Shown: positions 4,108 to 15,300 of the stretch, in pieces | Layout of the letters: every line of letters starts with the position of its first letter | Position numbering within the stretch: the first letter of the stretch is position 1 | DNA from: Thermoanaerobaculia bacterium | GTDB lineage: Bacteria > Acidobacteriota > Thermoanaerobaculia > Multivoradales > UBA5704 | Length of the DNA stretch: 32,000 nt | Direction: 5' to 3' | NCBI GenBank assembly: GCA_035264905.1 | Contig: DATFPH010000324.1 | Location: forward strand, 1-32,000 | Notes under the pieces: model-generated | What the model saw: the letters and a program-made list of their open reading frames with translations, nothing else | Databases searched by the model: none | Told to the model about the DNA's origin: nothing | Program-made: the position numbers and the translations under genes

Positions 4108-4338
4108 CTTCCTACCTTTCGTTGGGGATAGACCGCATTGCCCACGTTTCGGTTAACCGTCAGCTAGATTCGGGACCACGCAACCGCTCGGCGCAGCCGC
4201 TGAGGAGTAGGGAATGCTCGGAAGAAAACAACCCTGATCAACGTCTCCCTACATTCTGCCGTATCATCGCCGACCTCTGCTCCCCGAGGCGCCGAAGCCT
4301 CTCTATCTCATTGGTTCCACAGGACGATACGAAAGTTT

Positions 4339-4515
4339 CGCATGCTCGTCAACTCGCCGGCTTGTAGCGATATGTACATTGGATGGCGTCTACCGAGGCG
4401 TTCGTCTTATCCGTCATTTGACGATGCCGAAGGCTTGGCAGGAGGGCTTCTCCCCTGTCGATATGCACCAGGCACGCGGGTGCTCCGGGGCTTCTCCGTG
4501 TCGGCGAAGCGGCTT
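4339..4515. repeat. Copy A of a ~178-nt diverged direct repeat (partner at 10886-11063)
   Basis: Hand alignment to copy B, same orientation. First 41 nt are 35/41 identical (cgcatgctcgtcaactcgccggcttgtagcgatatgtacat). Last 29 nt are 26/29 (ggggcttctccgtgtcggcgaagcggctt). The middle is less conserved, with shared blocks ttcgtcttatccgtc and ggag-gcttct-cctgtcg-tatgc. Contains the 8-bp palindrome ATGTACAT at 4372-4379. Confidence 0.8.
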
Positions 4516-4960: not shown

Positions 4961-5697
4961 TCACCGACGACTCCTTGTATGAGCTTGCGGTAAACGCCTG
5001 CACTATCGGATCTGTCAGATGCTGTTGGCTGGGCCGCCTCAAGGAGCGAAGCGAAATCGGCGTACGTGCTAAAGCCGATGTGCATGGTCGCAAGAATCTC
5101 CGCAAAGCGTGGCAGACTCGTGCCGAGACGAGATGGATGCCGGCTCAGAAATAGGCTAAGGTCTGTCTGAGCCGCCGCATTCTTGAGCTCAGCCGGATCG
5201 TCAAATCTTTCCTTCCATTGAGACGCGAAGTCGCCCCTACCCAGAAACCCTAAGTGATGAACCTTCTGGCGACCAGATTCAAGCTCCTCCGCAAGCCCCA
5301 GAAGAACGTACTTTAGGAGCTGGCTAATTCCACTCTTGGCCTCGATCTTCATCTCGATCGCGACAACGTTAGAATCCGACGTGAAGAAGAAATCGGGCTG
5401 GGTCGAGCCCGCCATGCCGTACGCTTCTTCGACACCTCGCCCGTGCATCCGGTGTTCACCGGAAAGGGCTCGGCCGAACAGCAGATTAAAGAACCGAGTG
5501 CGAACTGCCTCCGGCGCGAGCAGGAAGAACATGTTGAGGTTATGGTTCAAGGTTACTTCCATGGCTCGGAGGTGCGACTGGACCTTTTCCAATGAATTGA
5601 GCTTGGAGTCGATGTGCTTCTTCCTCCCGAGATGCTGCGGCTCCCAGTAGAAGAACTCGAGAGATTGATAGTAACTCTCTGTCCAAGAATCCTCCAT
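4936..5697 (-). CDS. PD-(D/E)xK (RecB/Cas4-like fold) nuclease-family protein, stand-alone
   Basis: ORF 4936..5814. Start moved to ATG 5695-5697, which has a strong SD (GGGGAGGG at 5703-5710, 5-nt spacer). Core motif QPDFFFTSDSNVVAIEMKIEAKSGISQLLKY gives D ... E-x-K followed by QxxxY, the classical restriction-endonuclease-like or RecB-family arrangement. Confidence 0.6.
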   Translation of the reverse strand: MEDSWTESYYQSLEFFYWEPQHLGRKKHIDSKLNSLEKVQSHLRAMEVTLNHNLNMFFLLAPEAVRTRFFNLLFGRALSGEHRMHGRGVEEAYGMAGSTQPDFFFTSDSNVVAIEMKIEAKSGISQLLKYVLLGLAEELESGRQKVHHLGFLGRGDFASQWKERFDDPAELKNAAAQTDLSLFLSRHPSRLGTSLPRFAEILATMHIGFSTYADFASLLEAAQPTASDRSDSAGVYRKLIQGVVGEFKHRKLA

Positions 5698-6074
5698 CTC
5701 AGCCCTCCCCCTATTTGTCGCAACCTCATACTCGATCCGGTGCCCGACGCACAACGGACAGGGATGGAGTTGAGCGAGCGGCGAGGTCCGCTCGGCTGGG
5801 TTCGCCGCCCCCACACAGGTCTACTACCGACCAGCGACCGCCCCCACTACCCCGCCCTTGAACAGCTCGAAGCAATACTACAGAAAGAGGTCCGGTATGA
5901 ACAGGCCAGTCGGCTCGCAACCGGCCGGGCTGTTGGGGCTCGGCCCTCCAAGGCAACGCCAGTGCGGAGGCGAAAACGCCAGCCCCTGGCAGAGAGTCGT
6001 GGCCGCCAGTCGCCTCCAGCCCCGAATTCCCCACGAGGTGCCACAAAGACGCGGCTTTGAGTTAGAATGGGTCT

Positions 6075-6293
6075 ATGCGAGTAACTACCGGAAGAGTCGT
6101 CAACGGCAAGATCGAGGTTCCTGACGAGGAGTTGACCGAGGGGATGGTTGTGACCATCTTGGCGCCCGAGGATCAGGGCACCTTCACCCTTGGCCCTGAA
6201 GCGGAGGCCGCCCTCTTGGCCTCGATCGAGGAGGCAGACCGGGGCGAGGTGATTTCGGGAGAAGAGCTCTTACGGGAGCTGCGGCGCGATTGA
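6075..6293 (+). CDS. Type II antitoxin (partner of the ParE-like toxin)
   Basis: 72 aa. Its stop overlaps the downstream toxin start (ATTGA, TTG 6290 / TGA 6291-6293). The C-terminal EAEAALLASIEEADRGEVISGEELLREL is typical of ParE-associated antitoxins. Confidence 0.7.
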   Translation: MRVTTGRVVNGKIEVPDEELTEGMVVTILAPEDQGTFTLGPEAEAALLASIEEADRGEVISGEELLRELRRD

Positions 6294-6601
6294 GTCCGCG
6301 GCTGCCGTTGCAAGTCACTCGCCGGGCCCGCCGCGAGATCCGGGCAGCCTCGGCATGGTGGGACGAAAATCGTCCTGCTGCACCCGACGCTTTCCGGGAT
6401 GCCATCGATAAGACATTCGAGCTAATTTGCACTCAACCGACCATAGGAGCGGTCGCAGCCAATGTCACGCTTCCTGGCGTGCGCCGCATTCTCTTAAGCA
6501 AAATTCAGTACTACCTCTACTATCGTGTAAAGAGCAACCCGCCCACGGTTGAAGTGGTGGCGATCTGGCACACGAGCCGATACCCAGATCTCAACCTTTA
6601 G
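6290..6601 (+). CDS. parE: ParE/RelE-family type II toxin
   Basis: 103 aa. TRRARREIRAASAWWDENRP...FRDAIDKTFELICTQP..G......PGVRRILLSKIQYYLYYRV....VEVVAIWHTSR is the ParE/RelE plasmid-stabilisation pattern. It has a 4-nt overlap with the upstream antitoxin. Confidence 0.8.
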   Translation: MSPRLPLQVTRRARREIRAASAWWDENRPAAPDAFRDAIDKTFELICTQPTIGAVAANVTLPGVRRILLSKIQYYLYYRVKSNPPTVEVVAIWHTSRYPDLNL

Positions 6602-7504: not shown

Positions 7505-8422
7505 TCACTTCTTTGGAAAGCGAACCGTAAACCTGGCCCCTCTAGGTCCACTACTTGTCAAGAGAACCTCCCCACCCTGTGCTGTCATCAAGCGCCGAGC
7601 CAGGTACAACCCAAAGCCACTGCCTGGTTTTGTGGAAGATCCCAAGTTGAATATTGTACTCTCTGAATGAATCGGCACGCCCGGGCCACCGTCGATGACA
7701 TGGCAGGAAATGGCAGTGCCGTCGTCTTGGCACTCGATACGGATCGTACTCTCCACAGGAGATGCATCAATTGCATTCACCGCTAGAGTCATCAAGACTT
7801 GAAATGTAGTGTTGAAAGGGACAGAAACTACAGTATCCTGAGGTACTACGCTCAAGAAATCTAACCTCTTTTTGTTTATGACAGGCCGGAGAAGGCCTTC
7901 GATTCTATCGATTACCTCATGTAGCCGAGAAAACTGCTCACCTTGTGCTCCATTCTTCCCAACCTTACTCTCAGTCTTCACGGCTAAGTTCAAGAATTGA
8001 GCTCTTTGTTGGAGAGCACCCATGAGACGCTCGTACCATCTAGGGTCCGCACGACTGACCCACTGCCACTTACGTAAGCGCTCGGGGACTTCGCATTGAT
8101 CCAACTTAAGAGGGATTACAAACATTGTACCCTCTGGCTGTTCATCTGCCAAGTCCAAGATATATCGAATCTCTTTCTGTATATACCCTACTTTACTCGT
8201 CGAATTCTGTGAAATGCACACCAAGACAATGTCAGAAGTCCGGATAGCCTTCGTAATCTCCAAATGCCAGTCCTGGCCCGGGAGTAAATCCTCCTCATCG
8301 AACCATGGCTCTATTCCATCAGCAAGAAGTTGGCCATAAAGGTCACGCACTACCGGCTTGTCCTGCGAAGAATGGCAAAGAAATACTCGCAGAAGACGCC
8401 TGGGGTCAACCGTTGCAATCAT
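7505..8422 (-). CDS. TIR domain fused to a histidine-kinase core (DHp-like + HATPase_c); no TM or classical sensor domain
   Basis: 305 aa. The TIR_2-like N-terminus is about aa 12-135: RVFLCHSSQDKPVVRDLYGQLLADGIEPWFDEEDLLPGQDW...IRTSDIVLVCISQNSTSKVGYIQKEIRYIL...FVIPLKL. The candidate catalytic Glu is E84. H-box-like FSRLHEVIDRIEGLL (H168). N-box LMTLAVNAIDA, G1 DGGPGV, F/G2 IFNLGSSTKPGSGFGLYLARRL. Typical kinase end GGEVLLTSSGPRGARFTVRFP. Confidence 0.8.
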   Translation of the reverse strand: MIATVDPRRLLRVFLCHSSQDKPVVRDLYGQLLADGIEPWFDEEDLLPGQDWHLEITKAIRTSDIVLVCISQNSTSKVGYIQKEIRYILDLADEQPEGTMFVIPLKLDQCEVPERLRKWQWVSRADPRWYERLMGALQQRAQFLNLAVKTESKVGKNGAQGEQFSRLHEVIDRIEGLLRPVINKKRLDFLSVVPQDTVVSVPFNTTFQVLMTLAVNAIDASPVESTIRIECQDDGTAISCHVIDGGPGVPIHSESTIFNLGSSTKPGSGFGLYLARRLMTAQGGEVLLTSSGPRGARFTVRFPKK

Positions 8423-10751: not shown

Positions 10752-10885
10752 CGAAATTACCCTCGGCGGCTAACCTTGTGTGCTTCGATGTCTCCCCACA
10801 CTCTGCCGTATTGCCGCTGGCGCCTGCTCTCATACCGCCTCGGGGCCCGCTATACAACTGATCCTTCAATATGTTACGAGGCATT

Positions 10886-11063
10886 CGCATTCTCGTCAAT
10901 ATGCGGGCTTGTGGCGATATGTACATCTGCGGCACTCGACGGGCAATTCGTCTTATCCGTCGGCGGACGACTCCCAAAGCTCCCGACGGAGGAGCTTCTT
11001 TCCTGTCGGTATGCGCCTCTCGTTCGGGTCGGCAGGGGCTTATCCGTGTCCGCGAAGCAGCTT
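10886..11063. repeat. Copy B of the ~178-nt diverged direct repeat (partner at 4339-4515)
   Basis: Same orientation as copy A (alignment in the copy A entry). Palindrome ATGTACAT at 10919-10926. TTATCC cores at 10953, 11040 and 11062, plus TTATCT at 11085 just outside the aligned block. Confidence 0.8.
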
Positions 11064-11283
11064 ATCCAGGGGGGTGTTGGGGGCTTATCTGCTCGTGAGG
11101 TGTCGGCGAGGGTCGCAGCCTTCTGGAATGCCGCCAGCGCCCCCTCGAGGCGGATGTCCGGCAGCGGCAACCTCGACGCCCCCTGGCGGGCCACGATGCC
11201 GAGGAACAGGCTGAACATCCCGGCCGGCGCGCCTCGGAGTACGTCCGCCACGGAACCCGGATTCAAGTATTCGCTCACCGGGC

Positions 11284-12207
11284 AGAAGCCTTTTCGCCGC
11301 GGGGAGTTTCCCGGTGCTCCCGGGGAGTTTCCCGCGCCTCCCGGGCAGGAGTACTTGCGTACCGGGTAAGAGCCTTTACGCCGCGGGAATTTCCCCGAGA
11401 GCCGCGGACGAAAGTACTTGCGTACCGGGTAGGAGCCTTTGGGCCGCGGGAGATTTCCCGCGAGCCGTGGGGAAGAGTACTTGCGTACCGGGTAAGAGCC
11501 CAAGAGCCCCGGGCCGAAGTACTTGCGTGCCGGGTGAGAGCCTTTGGGCCGCGAGAGATCTCCCGCGGGCTGCGGGGAAAAGTACTTGCGCGCCGGGTAA
11601 GAGCCCGAGAGCCGCGGGCGTTCGTACTTGCGTGCAGGGTAAGAGCCTTTACGCCGCGGGGAGAAGTACTTGTTTACCGGGTGAGAGCCTTTGAGCCGCG
11701 GGAGATTTCCCGCGAGCCGCGGGGAGAAGTACTTGCGTACCGGGTAATTGCCCGGTAGCGCCGGGTAATTGCCCGGGAGCCGCGGGCAACTCCCCGGGAG
11801 CCGCCGGGAGCTTCCGGCTGAACGCGGGTTGGAGACCGCGAGGCGCGGGTGAGACCCCGAGAGGTCCGGGTCAGCTCCCGGGCGGCGCTGGGCAAGACCC
11901 GCGAGCTACAGGCTGGAGCCCGCGAGCCGCGGGGCGGAACCCGGGAGGCGCGGGGGACTCCCCGGAAGCCGCGGGTCAGCTCCCGCGAAGCGCGGGTTGG
12001 CGCCCGCAACCCAAAGGCTGGAGCCGGGGAGGCGTGGACTGGAGCCCGCAAGGTCCGGGGTGGAGCCCGGGAGGCCTGGGCAAGAGCCGGCGAGCCACGG
12101 GGTGAAGCCCACGAGTCCCCGGCTGGAGCCCGCGAGGCGCGGGTCAATGCCCGAGCGACCCGGGTCTTCCTCCGCGAGCCGAAGTCTGGAGCCGGGGAGG
12201 CGACCAG
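11284..12207. repeat. Tandem array of 44 phased 21-nt units (degenerate), with 63/42-nt higher-order structure in the left half
   Basis: Units were written out by hand. The unit boundary stays in exact phase at 11284+21n at every checkpoint tested: units 4, 7, 10, 12, 15, 17, 19, 22, 27, 31, 36, 41 and 44. Right-half consensus is about TGGAGCCCGCGAGGCGCGGGT. In the left half, units 4, 7, 10, 12, 15, 17, 19 and 22 carry AGTACTTGCGTACCGGGT, alternating with AAGAGCCTTTNNGCCGCGGG and GATTTCCCGCGAGCCGCGGG types. Most units contain CCCGCG..CGCGGG inverted pairs. Confidence 0.9.
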
Positions 12208-12210
12208 GGT

Positions 12211-12243
12211 AGCCGGCGAGAGCCCGCGGCCGGTTACTTTTTT
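12211..12243 (+). terminator. Intrinsic-terminator-like hairpin + T6 at the right edge of the 21-nt array
   Basis: agccggc (12211-12217) pairs with gccggtt (12229-12235), 7 bp with one G:U and an 11-nt loop. It is followed by AC and TTTTTT (12238-12243). The orientation implies plus-strand transcription through or out of the array. Confidence 0.4.
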
Positions 12244-12319
12244 GCCGCAGCCCCTGTCTAAGAGAGTGGAGGTCCCAAGAGCGGGACCTTCGAGACCTCT
12301 GTTCTCAGGGAGGACGCCC

Positions 12320-15300
12320 ATGTTCCGGACCGTCTCGCTTCTCGGCTTGCTCGCCCTCGCCGCCGTTGGTTTGACCTCCGGCCTGGCGCAGGACAAGGCA
12401 GGCTCCGGCAGTCTCCGGCCCGCCGCTGCTGCTGCTCCCGCGACTACCGTGGCCAGCTTCACGCCGGCCTCGTTCCGATTCTCGAAGACCACGGCCGATC
12501 AACCCGAAACCGAGCCGGAGGCGCCGGTCCGCCTCACCGCGACCGACGGGACGGGTCTCTCCCTAGTCGCCCTGGAGGCGAACGGCGTGCTGGAGCCGCC
12601 GCTCGCGTTCACCGAGCTCCACCTCACCTTCGAAAACCCCCGCGACCAGATGATCGAGGGGCGGTTCCGCATCGCCCTGCCGCCGGGCGCCGCACTCTCC
12701 CGCTTCGCCATGAAGATCGGCGACTCCTGGCAGGAAGGGGAAGTGGTGGAGCGCCAGCGCGCCCGCGTGGCCTATGAGGACTTCCTCCACCGCCGGCAGG
12801 ATCCGGCGCTCCTGGAGCAGGAGGCGGGGAACGAGTTCTCGGCCCGTGTCTTCCCGATCCCGGCCCGGGGCCGTAAAGAGATCATCGTCTCCTATTCGCA
12901 CGGGCTGACCCGGGCGGACGAGCCGTACGTCATCCCGCTCCTCGGGCTCTCGGAGGTCGGCCAGCTCGACGTCCGCGTGCTCCTCGGCGAGCGCCCGGCC
13001 GGCGGTTTCCCGGAGAACACGGCGGCGAGCAACCTCGGCGGCGAGGTCCGTGACCGCCGCGTCATCGAGCTGCACAAGCGGAGCTGGACGCCGGACCGCG
13101 ACTTCGAGGTCGGCCAGGAGCAGGTCGCGGGCCGCGCCGGGCTGCGGCACGACCACCTCGCCGTGGTGCGCGTCGCGCCGGTCGTCGAATCGGCGCCGCA
13201 GGAGATTACCGGCCTCTACGTGCTCGTCGATTCGAGCGCGTCGCGCGCCCTCGGCTGGAAAGCCCAGGTGCGCCGTCTCACCGAGCTCGCCGGCGGCCTG
13301 CGCGACGGCGCCGGCAGCGCGACGCCGCTGGGTATCGCCGCGTTCGACCAGGTGGTCGTGCCGGTTTTCGAAGGCACGGCGGGCGGGTTCGGCGCCGCCG
13401 AGGTGCAGAGCCTCGGCGCCCGCCGTCCGCTCGGTGCGTCGGACCTGCAGAGCGCTCTCACCTGGCTGGCCGGCCGGCTGGGCGAGGAGCGCGCACAGTA
13501 TCCGCGCGTCCTGCTGCTGACCGACGGCGTGGCCACCGCCGGAGAGACCGAGACGCGGGCGCTCAAGGCGGCGGTACAGGCCCTGGGCGCGCAAGGCGTC
13601 GAGCGCCTCGACGTGCTGGCCGTCGGCGGGCTGCGCGACGACGCGGTGCTGCGGGAGCTGACGACCGGCAACCTGAAGCACGACGGCCAGCGCCTCGACG
13701 GTGGCGCTCCGCTCACCGAGATCTCCCGCCGGCTGACCCTCGCCAGCCGCTCCGGCATCCAGGTGGCGGTCGAGGGAGCGACCTGGGTCTGGCCCGAGAC
13801 CCTCGACGGCATCCAGCCCGGCGACCAGGCTCTGGTCTATGCCGACCTGCCGGCGGACCGGCCGCTGCGTCTCTCTCTGGCCGGCCAGCCCTTGACGCTC
13901 GCCGGTGAGCTGGCGCCCGCCGAGCGGCCTCTGCTCGAAAGATCCTGGGCGCAGGCTCGCATCGAGCGGCTGCTGCACCTGCGCGACACCGAGCACGCCG
14001 GCGACGACGACCTGCGCCGGGCTCTCGCGTTGCAGGTCACCGAGCTCAGCATCCGCCACCGGGTGCTCTCCCCGTATACCGCCCTGCTGGTGCTCGAAAC
14101 CGAGGCCGATTACGCGCGCTTCGGCCTCGACCGCCGGGCCCTCGCCGACATCCTGACCGTCGGCGCAGGTGGGCTGGACGTGCTCGCCCGGAAGCAGTCC
14201 GGCGCGTCCGGGGGGACCCGGATCGCCGTCGAGACCCGGCAATCGACGAAGACCGACTTCGATACCTTCGAAGCCCCAGGGCCCGAGGGCGAGCCTGCGA
14301 TGCCGCTCGACGTGGAGGATGGCGTCGAAGGCGGAGTCGAGGGAGGCGTGGAAGGTGGTGTGGCCGGAGGCGTGGTCGGAGGCGTTGCCGGCGGTGCGAT
14401 CGCGGTCCAGGCCACTGAGGTGCCCCCGCCGCCGATGGCCGTGCCGTCGCCCCCGCCGCCGCCAATGGCGCGTCCGCGGCCGGTCGAGTCGGACGAGGCG
14501 CCCCTGCGCGTCGGCGGAAATGAACAACCCCTGGCGGAGACCATCAGCGCCGAGACTCCGCGGCGAGACCGCGAGGAGGAGAAAAGAAAGATGGTTGCGC
14601 CGTACTCCGGGCGTTTCGCCGAGGTCATGGAGCACCTCGCCGCCGGCCGGACCGCGCGGGCGCGCGCTCGTGCCGAGGCCTGGAGCGCCGAGGAGCCGGG
14701 CGACGTGCTGGCCCTGCTGGCACTGGGCGAGGCCTGGGAGGCCGTTGGCGAGAAAACCGCGGCGGCGCGGGCCTACGGCTCGCTGATCGACCTCTTCCCG
14801 AGCCGCGTCGACATGCGGCGGCTGGCCGGCGAGCGTCTCGAACGGCTGGGAGAGGCGGGGCGCGCCCTGGCGATCGACACCTACCGGAAAGCCGTCCAGG
14901 ACCGGCCGGACCACCCCTCGGGCCATCGTCTCCTCGCCTGGGCCCTGCTGCGTGCCGGCCGTTTTGCGGAAGCCTTCGAGGCGCTCGAAACCGGCCTGGA
15001 GCAGGACTACCCCGGTGGGCGCTTCCTGGGAGCCGACCGCATCCTGCGGGAAGACTTCGGCCTCCTCGGCGCCGCTTGGCTGCGCGCCGAGCCGTCCCGC
15101 CGCGAAGAGGTCCTCGACCGCCTCCAGGCCCACCAGGCCCGGCTGGAGAGCGAGCCCTCCCTGCGCTTCGTCCTCACCTGGGAGACCGACGCCAACGACG
15201 TCGACCTCCACATCTGGGACCGTCAGGACAACCATGCCTACTTCAGCCAGAAGAAGCTGGCCTCGGGAGGCGAGCTCTACGAGGACGTGACCACCGGCTA

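Follow-up and report, generated by a model that had tools for sequence, protein, structure and literature searches.

Tandem repeats in bacterial genomes are usually regarded as typing markers or phase-variation switches. Among the repeat arrays with a defined molecular role are the iterons and partition centromeres of plasmids, such as sopC of F (12 repeats of 43 bp), parC of R1 (10 of 11 bp), the 20-bp repeats of pSK41, and the omega heptads of inc18, in which helically phased direct repeats bearing short inverted repeats load a dimeric protein cooperatively, often upstream of a promoter. Other repeat-built loci are regulatory RNAs, namely the CsrB and RsmZ sponges and the type III antitoxin arrays of the ToxI kind, where a few repeats of 34–45 nt are followed by a terminator and then by an endoribonuclease toxin gene. 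Minisatellites have also been reported within mobile DNA: one report describes a MITE of Porphyromonas gingivalis that carries a minisatellite inside the mobile element (PMC4596501), and an account of Helitron minisatellites in C. elegans describes repeats whose period fits the helical repeat of DNA and which work as mechanical insulators (bioRxiv 10.64898/2026.08.08.743475). Here, we describe an array from a Thermoanaerobaculia bacterium, a member of an abundant, uncultured soil lineage. The window, meaning the whole 32,000-nt stretch of DNA that was analyzed, lies on a contig assembled with MEGAHIT from an ENA metagenome, and homologs of its VIT protein assign it to Acidobacteriota, class Thermoanaerobaculia. 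We found that the array is a real, non-coding, phase-locked 21-bp minisatellite of varying copy number, and that it is one copy of a dispersed element, composed of a conserved head and an array, in one group of soil Thermoanaerobaculia. The features of the locus, in window coordinates, are as follows.

4232–4515, plus strand: partial second copy of Module A, lacking head and array, which forms the left repeat of the island (nhmmer profile positions 23–309, E = 1e-33)
10779–11130, no strand assigned: Module A of the conserved flank, common to L092, L094, and L095 (alignment with 1-nt indels)
10871–10899, minus strand: predicted sigma-70-like promoter, TTGACG-17-TAACAT, invariant in 4/4 long-flank copies
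11130–11283, plus strand: head, a conserved non-repeat (degenerate-unit) sequence ending in AAGTATTCGCTCACCGGG (nhmmer, alignment)
11263–12228, no strand assigned: full 21-nt phased array of about 46 units (lag-21 identity profile, unit table, TRF)
11284–11346, plus strand: three start units, AGAAGCCTTTTCGCCGCGGGG / AGTTTCCCGGNGCTCCCGGGG (oriented unit tables of L091, L092, L093, L095, and L096)
11347–11745, plus strand: left zone, a 63/42-nt higher-order repeat, GTACTTGCGTACCGGGTAAGAGCCTTTGNGCCGCGGGAAATCTCCCGCGNGCCGCGGGGAGAA (95% identity to the L095 ortholog)
11746–12207, plus strand: right zone, more heterogeneous units of the form NNGAG-CCCGCG-AGS-CGCGGG-N (unit table, L095 comparison)
11906–11908, minus strand: TAG, the single in-frame stop of the heptad frame (reading of open reading frames)
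12229–12319, plus strand: conserved VIT promoter/leader, abutted by the array and lying outside it (alignment with L007 and L008)

Cutting positions 11284–12207 every 21 nt gave 44 units, all in register, as the preliminary description had stated. Self-identity of the array at lag 21 was 0.544, against 0.295 ± 0.014 in shuffled sequences, and further peaks fell at multiples of 21 only (0.56 at lag 42, 0.60 at lag 63, and 0.62 at lag 105). TRF likewise returned period 21 and its multiples (21, 42, 63, 84, 105, and 147). A sliding lag-21 scan placed the borders at approximately 11260 and 12230, which adds one degenerate unit on each side. The 21-nt unit, GGAGCCCGCGAGCCGCGGGT, consists of a 5-nt variable linker, CCCGCG-AGS-CGCGGG, and one variable base. 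In the left half, three unit types are interleaved into the 63/42-nt higher-order repeat, marked by AGTACTTGCGTACCGGGT, and the unit table places this GTAC-N4-GTAC marker in units 4, 7, 10, 12, 15, 17, 19, and 22, exactly where it had first been reported. Palindromic cores differ between the zones, being CCCG-N7-CGGG in the right zone and a 20-nt CCGCGGGA-N4-TCCCGCGG every 63 nt in the left. Of the six possible pairs in CCCGCG-N3-CGCGGG, four or more are Watson-Crick in 24 of the 44 units, 16/22 in the right half and 8/22 in the left.

The objection that such an array could be an assembly artefact fails, because an independent JGI assembly carries its ortholog. This was one of six JGI loci recovered by a metagenome scan with the 24-nt marker GTACTTGCGTRCCGGGTRAGAGCC. 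The ortholog (L095) lies on a 310-kb contig, with a VIT gene of 92.7% nucleotide identity and strong third-position bias, a flank of 91% identity, a left half of the array at 95% identity interrupted by one 63-nt indel, and a right half at about 89% identity that is expanded by a 294-nt (14-unit) block present in roughly 2.7 copies. Array length accordingly differs, at about 68 units in L095 and about 45 in the window, so that the anticipated variation in copy number between strains is borne out, in steps of 63 and 294 nt. The locus thus shows what defines a minisatellite, namely tandem units of 10–100 bp in non-coding DNA whose copy number changes by whole units. The array changes length by in-register unequal recombination of units or of blocks (63 and 294 nt).

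Four further loci (L091, L092, L093, and L096) carry paralogous arrays of 66%–73% identity in other contexts, and L094 retains a stub of only 3 units. Polarity and order are the same in the six long copies, the window included: the head, about 150 nt long, comes first and is followed by the start units, the 63-nt zone, and a GGAGCC-CGCG zone. Equivalents of the start units are kept at the head-proximal end in all six, and every higher-order period is a multiple of 21 (63, 105, 147, 210, 252, and 294). The head is common to all copies of the element, with nhmmer profile positions 382–543 matching L091, L092b, and L093. L092 and L094 are mutually orthologous and differ by a 42-unit array, which in L092 is oriented opposite to the array beside the flank; L092 has an inverted pair of heads. 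Apart from this pair, we found neither terminal inverted repeats nor a transposase in the element. Head-side genes vary and are often of defence type in 5/6 loci (the window and five further copies, the ortholog L095 apart), and include UvrD-nuclease, methylase, and ResIII-S24 in L093, a PIN toxin in L091, DUF3800 in L092, DUF7019 in L094, and TIR-HATPase/Ea47 in the window. A phage or plasmid origin of the array was considered and set aside, neither unit nor head having a match in viral contigs.

The first candidate source of an exact 21-nt phase is translation, since 21 nt equals seven codons. The preliminary description held that no open reading frame spans the array, which is literally correct but understates the minus strand: the frame of the open reading frame at 10874–11503 is open from 12306 to 10877 save for the one TAG, and reads as heptads of the form xPRLxGS (YPVRKYF-SPRLAGN-LPRLKGS). 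Its conclusion that a heptad-repeat protein is unlikely stands on other tests, the frame closures offered in its support being incomplete. In this light, the minus strand might encode a decayed (pseudogenised) or unconventional family of Pro/Arg/Gly-rich heptad-repeat genes; in L092, the frame is fully open for 369 codons, and GC content in the frame is highest at the third position (0.80–0.85). Two weak matches, P0121 and P0122, were the only ones in a protein search of 5.8 billion sequences, and both are gene-caller open reading frames laid over a diverged relative of the element's repeat. Several observations run against such a gene. No ATG, GTG, or TTG start codon occurs in the heptad frame between 12306 and 12112, no gene was called over the array in the source assembly, and the frame has no Pfam match and belongs to no protein family among the sequences searched. 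The frame is broken in 5/6 long copies, by one stop in the window, one in L093, and two in L096, and by frameshifts from 1-nt indels in L091 and L095, leaving it intact only in L092, and copies also differ by 1-nt and 4-nt indels in the would-be C-terminal tail.

Measures of coding constraint agree. Period-3 Fourier power of the array was 2.4 in the left half and 0.6 in the right half, against at least 16 in the controls, namely the VIT and M16 genes and a genuine heptad-coding sequence from L087. In 23 super-repeat copies (63 nt each) drawn from six arrays, pN/pS ranged from 0.75 to 1.05 over the six frames, the heptad frame giving 0.95. Between the window and L095, substitutions by coordinate modulo 3 were 12/3/6 in the array and 30/159/41 in VIT, and the VIT indels measure 12, 3, and 6 nt. 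Several other period-21 arrays of the lineage are closed in every frame, and arrays of period 20 also occur. We therefore reject the heptad-repeat protein on period-3 power, pN/pS, frameshifts among paralogs, and the lack of homologs and of a start codon, and regard the gene family, even as a decayed one, as very unlikely. The array is non-coding, and since stops and frameshifts are tolerated, translation is ruled out as the source of the phase constraint.

A second candidate is RNA. The locus could specify a long non-coding transcript, roughly 1 kb in length, in which short hairpins follow one another in tandem, separated by purine-rich linkers (GGAG/AAGAG); such an RNA might sequester an RNA-binding protein, as the CsrB/RsmZ sponges do, or yield 21-nt pieces on processing. 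The polarity of the element and its conserved head are gene-like, consensus units are foldable (z = -2.2 to -3.1 for 84-nt pieces), GGA/GAGG motifs recur in the unit linkers and loops, and the head shows weak covariation on the plus strand (covariation term -1.16, 5 pairs). Nonetheless, the ladder of hairpins that had been envisaged from the inverted pairs did not hold up as a selected structure: stem pair 10–16 is Watson-Crick in 12/44 units, with 12.9 expected from shuffles, and none of the 16 predicted pairs of the 63-nt unit shows compensatory change among the 23 super-repeat copies. Folding is about equal on both strands. An Rfam search of the array and left flank returned no match at the gathering threshold, the best E-value (0.06, sar) being located outside the array. 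We found neither a conserved promoter at the head nor a conserved terminator at the distal end; the sole promoter-like site seen near the array points away from it. The hairpin with a U-run at 12212–12246 was rejected as an intrinsic terminator, since comparison with L095 shows it to be a non-conserved junction left by the deletion of about 186 nt. An RNA model also gives no reason for exactly 21 nt across arrays of unrelated sequence, and we consider it improbable, though less so than the gene family.

The array sits between two divergent promoters, at the junction of the core VIT-M16 operon and a low-GC island. On the VIT side, the suggestion that the array controls the downstream operon is not supported by two relatives (L007 and L008) whose VIT proteins are approximately 76%–81% identical to that of the window and which keep the VIT promoter/leader with an upstream spacer of just 220–320 bp and no array. 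Because these array-less relatives retain the promoter/leader, the array was not part of ancestral VIT regulation. On the island side, a conserved left flank of about 460 nt (10779–11240) is non-coding, given its five 1-nt indels and its substitutions of 17/17/9 by coordinate modulo 3 relative to L095; a protein tail and a known RNA were both rejected for it, on those indels and on the negative Rfam result. By eye, the flank indels appear to lie in or beside short G or C runs. Module A of this flank contains four CTTATCY motifs (10952, 11039, 11061, and 11084). The predicted sigma-70-like promoter within it faces variable cargo genes that differ by locus, from Ea47-like through TIR-HATPase in the window to DUF7019 in L094 and a membrane protein in L095.

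This context bears on the proposal that the array is the iteron origin or partition centromere of an integrated, plasmid-like replicon. Its direct repeats are of iteron length and in helical phase, with a period of exactly 21, the adjoining island is of low GC content, and the CTTATCY motifs beside it (10952–11090) loosely resemble DnaA boxes, agreeing with the consensus at 5–7 of 9 positions when matched by eye. However, no rep, par, relaxase, or integrase gene was found in the island by Pfam and PADLOC across all island open reading frames and the flanking genes, and the element occurs in at least seven copies on chromosomal contigs. The cargo varies while the array and flank stay fixed, there are no viral-contig matches, and no AT-rich unwinding region is present. 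Copy numbers of known iterons and centromeres are far below the 45–68 units of the array. The integrated-replicon proposal is thus the least probable of the readings weighed here, and we give it hardly any credence.

Only three 1-nt indels were found across approximately 285 units in six arrays. Between the window and L095, 0–1 small indels occur in about 900 nt of array, compared with 5 in 480 nt of flank; the indel rate of this adjoining non-coding flank predicts about 9 in the array, and about 1 was observed. Periodicity therefore appears constrained, as had been argued from the units alone. This depletion may partly be mutational, the array having no homopolymer runs. The evidence for selection on the array sequence itself, which comes from comparing orthologs, is modest, because divergence in the array (7.9%) is close to that of the flank (about 9%; third codon positions of VIT, 15%), and substitutions are spread evenly over unit positions (7.2% in the core and 8.4% in the rest). 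No visibly protected binding core is present within units at the divergence between the window and L095. Intrinsic DNA curvature was likewise rejected: a wedge-model calculation predicted nothing unusual, with an end-to-end/contour ratio of 0.81 and 28 degrees per 105 bp in the array, inside the range of coding controls (0.66–0.97 and 18–28 degrees).

The preference for 21 extends beyond this element. We measured self-identity at lags 8–45 in 49 Acidobacteriota loci (776 kb, obtained by VIT homology) and in 32 loci from other phyla (542 kb). Among the Acidobacteriota, lag 21 yielded 10 arrays with low period-3 power and 4 that were coding-like, lag 20 yielded 3 arrays, and lags 19, 22, and 23 none; the other phyla yielded 0 non-coding arrays and 1 coding-like array at lag 21. 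By TRF, 10/14 non-coding arrays of at least 100 nt had period 21, 42, or 63. Unit sequence is unrelated from one period-21 array to another; a short palindrome is usually present (for example, TGGCTTGAAGCCACCGCGGCT in L077/L079 and GGCAACACAGCACTGCGNNGT in L019), and in several arrays each of the six frames contains stops. Gain and loss occur between species, a second array of L077 being missing from L079. A common neighbouring gene was sought and rejected, since the neighbours, which include ABC ATPase, RHS, trypsin, PDDEXK_2, and TMEM175 genes, have nothing in common. Our literature search on 21-bp intergenic arrays found nothing specific. The array itself, being a minisatellite, is an already known kind of object; the head and array family, its position at the border of a defence island, and the lineage-wide preference for 21 bp seem to be undescribed in the literature found.

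Two explanations of the phase remain to be weighed. The array might be a functionless, possibly selfish minisatellite, begun as a short duplication beside the head and grown by slippage and unequal crossing-over, in which in-register recombination would keep the phase and a lineage-specific mutational bias would account for the 21-nt preference. The lack of an array upstream of VIT in L007 and L008, the loss or gain of whole arrays (the second array of L077, and about 42 units in L092 where L094 has none), substitutions uniform over unit positions at a divergence similar to that of the flank, and unit sequences unrelated between arrays are all in keeping with this. Against it stand the depletion of small indels relative to the flank and the conduct of the six paralogous copies, which at 66%–73% identity each keep at least about 40 units in the same zonal order, with three 1-nt indels in about 285 units. 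So does the sharp period-21 peak across unrelated sequences; to our knowledge, no mutational process gives such a peak with nothing at 19, 22, and 23. We hold this neutral reading to be possible, if on the unlikely side, and it ranks close behind the one that we favour.

That favoured reading is of an array acting at the level of DNA, phased to two helical turns, which loads a protein or serves as a boundary. A sharp preference for 21, with none at 19, 22, or 23, is what a two-turn constraint of B-DNA predicts, and is predicted neither by RNA hairpins nor by neutral slippage; on these grounds, we infer that the array works at the DNA level, not through an RNA or a protein. A 21-bp repeat spans two turns of B-DNA, which would set the palindromic cores all on one face of the helix and so could offer a long scaffold for the side-by-side, cooperative binding of a candidate dimeric or architectural DNA-binding protein. 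The resulting complex might separate the island promoter from the core VIT promoter, as a boundary or insulator; alternatively, it might provide a homology platform for swapping the adjacent cargo. We offer this scaffold only tentatively, as the foremost of several readings and short of an even chance, because neither a protected core nor unusual curvature was found, nor a partner protein, with no rep, par, or regulator gene linked to the array. As unit sequence differs from one period-21 array to the next, a shared function would require either many specific proteins or a single protein that reads shape.

A broader proposal is that Thermoanaerobaculia possess a genome-wide class of non-coding arrays sharing nothing other than the 21-bp period, of which the head and array element would be a specialised member that forms a protein-coated or mechanical boundary of defence islands, shielding core promoters from the variable, low-GC cargo or supplying homology for its exchange. 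We regard this as speculative and rather improbable in full. Its interest lies in the behaviour of this array and of a dozen unrelated ones, which have a two-turn period and tolerate many substitutions and few small indels. If this proves genome-wide, it would indicate a constraint on DNA geometry, and thus that some protein or physical mechanism recognises phase and not sequence. Core genes and exchangeable defence cargo meet at one family of these arrays, which may offer a handle on how such islands are delimited and exchanged; the boundary reading, if true, would make it a bacterial counterpart of satellite-based insulators. Should the arrays be neutral, the sharp preference for 21 nt would still point to a lineage-specific mutational process worth identifying.

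Compared with the systems described at the outset, the array shares with iterons and centromeres its direct repeats with short inverted repeats in helical phase, but differs in having no linked rep or par gene, in its 45–68 heterogeneous units where those systems have 3–12, and in being chromosomal and multi-copy. As in CRISPR loci, a leader-like conserved head precedes a long periodic array whose distal units are more degenerate, with defence genes close by; here, however, the units abut, the repeat taking up all 21 nt and leaving no unique spacers, the period falls well below that of a repeat plus spacer, and no cas genes or domains were found near the array by Pfam or PADLOC. The GC-rich, extragenic palindromic units recall the REP/BIME sequences of many intergenic regions, although those follow one genome-wide consensus and stand singly or in alternating inversion, whereas the array is strictly direct and tandem, with array-specific units. 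Repeat-built regulatory RNAs likewise have tandem, hairpin-capable short units with GGA-containing linkers; unlike CsrB, RsmZ, and ToxI, the array has far more copies, no linked toxin or CsrA gene, and no covariation, and is known from DNA alone, and in contrast to ToxI it has a period of 21 and VIT and Ea47-like genes as its neighbours. With the Helitron minisatellites, as the account of them goes, the array has in common an origin in a dispersed element, a period tied to the helical repeat, and a proposed physical boundary, and the likeness is one of analogy only, those repeats having a 10-bp period in eukaryotic chromatin (bioRxiv 10.64898/2026.08.08.743475). The closest match is with bacterial minisatellites and VNTR loci, which are also non-coding, head-to-tail arrays of 10–100-bp units that change copy number between strains by unequal recombination, and which can be multi-copy when borne by a dispersed element; the case reported from P. 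gingivalis is of a minisatellite within a mobile element (PMC4596501). What sets the present array apart from these is that each copy keeps a conserved head and ordered unit types, that small indels are depleted, and that many unrelated arrays of one lineage share the period of 21.

The helical-phase interpretation of the main array, the non-coding 21-nt-period repeat at window 11263-12228, rests centrally on period-21 arrays elsewhere in the lineage. Non-coding arrays of this period were common among the comparison loci (L-numbers) from Thermoanaerobaculia/Holophagales MAGs, and loci from other phyla had almost none; the arrays, listed here, had unit sequences unrelated to one another:

L015 5027-5300 and 13826-14281
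L017 17-230 and 20252-20525
L019 6462-6770
L025 22135-22380
L039 21100-21445
L077 2255-2485 and 2570-2820
L079 3025-3277
L008 9860-10050

One of the L015 arrays is directly adjoined by a PD-(D/E)XK "transposase" gene (Rpn/YhgA-like, PDDEXK_2; 5346-6341, minus strand), which is a possible lead to a recombination enzyme acting on period-21 arrays. Non-coding arrays of period 20 were found in two further loci:

L016 4274-4451
L046 7181-7324

The L016 unit, GCGGTTTTTAAGGCTCCGGC, contains a phased T5 tract, and a codon-based origin of these arrays is therefore disfavored. In L023, units of 117 nt, a period that is not a multiple of 21, build up a non-coding array of 1.2 kb immediately downstream of a VIT ortholog (13783-15026). 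Two predicted database proteins weakly matching the minus-strand heptad frame of the main array, P0121 and P0122, consist of GSYPLNMYFYPRLSG repeats followed by PVSEYF, and are probably spurious open reading frames called over a diverged relative of the non-coding head + array element.

To the right of the main array, the region 5' of the VIT gene comprises the blocks CCGGTTACTTTTTT...CCTGTCTAAG...GAGGTCCCAAGAGCGGGACC, and its conservation across three loci is far above that expected from the protein identities of 76-81%:

window 12229-12319, ~90-nt VIT 5' region
L007 3330-3420, the same region
L008 5910-6000, the same region

This region combines a promoter with a leader that may be structured. 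Between the array end and the VIT promoter, the window (12218-12228) is without ~186 nt held by its ortholog L095 (1625-1813, window orientation), and this deletion created a fortuitous terminator-like hairpin. Within the VIT gene, a 12/24-nt coding repeat (window 14321-14391), corresponding to a GGVEGGV stretch found across orthologs, accounts for the many lag-12 autocorrelation hits.

On the other side, the array is flanked by a conserved non-coding module of ~460 nt:

window 10779-11240, flank module
window 4232-4515, second partial copy
L092 3-444, flank module
L094 5683-6140, flank module
L095 5560-6046, flank module

The module holds an invariant, outward-facing promoter (TTGACG-17-TAACAT), and a low-GC cargo gene, different in each of the four loci, begins at most ~30 nt from its edge. 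The module resembles a fixed expression platform, or a hotspot, for exchangeable cargo of defense type. Cargo of the low-GC island includes a TIR + HATPase_c protein (window 7505-8350, minus strand), whose TIR domain matches PADLOC models for Argonaute-associated TIR proteins; the small ORFs neighboring it yielded no known families. The 32-kb window contains five CTTATCY motifs, and every one lies within one of the two module copies (10952, 11039, 11061 and 11084 on the plus strand, these four within 140 nt, and 4406); they could be protein-binding sites, loosely resembling DnaA boxes.

A second array type, eight copies of GGGGATCACCGTGATCCGGTC with 90% matches between copies (TRF), adjoins the module in two loci:

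L092 568-735
L094 6430-6600

It holds inverted ATCAC/GTGAT heptad-like motifs, which are reminiscent of the heptads to which the inc18 omega repressor binds.
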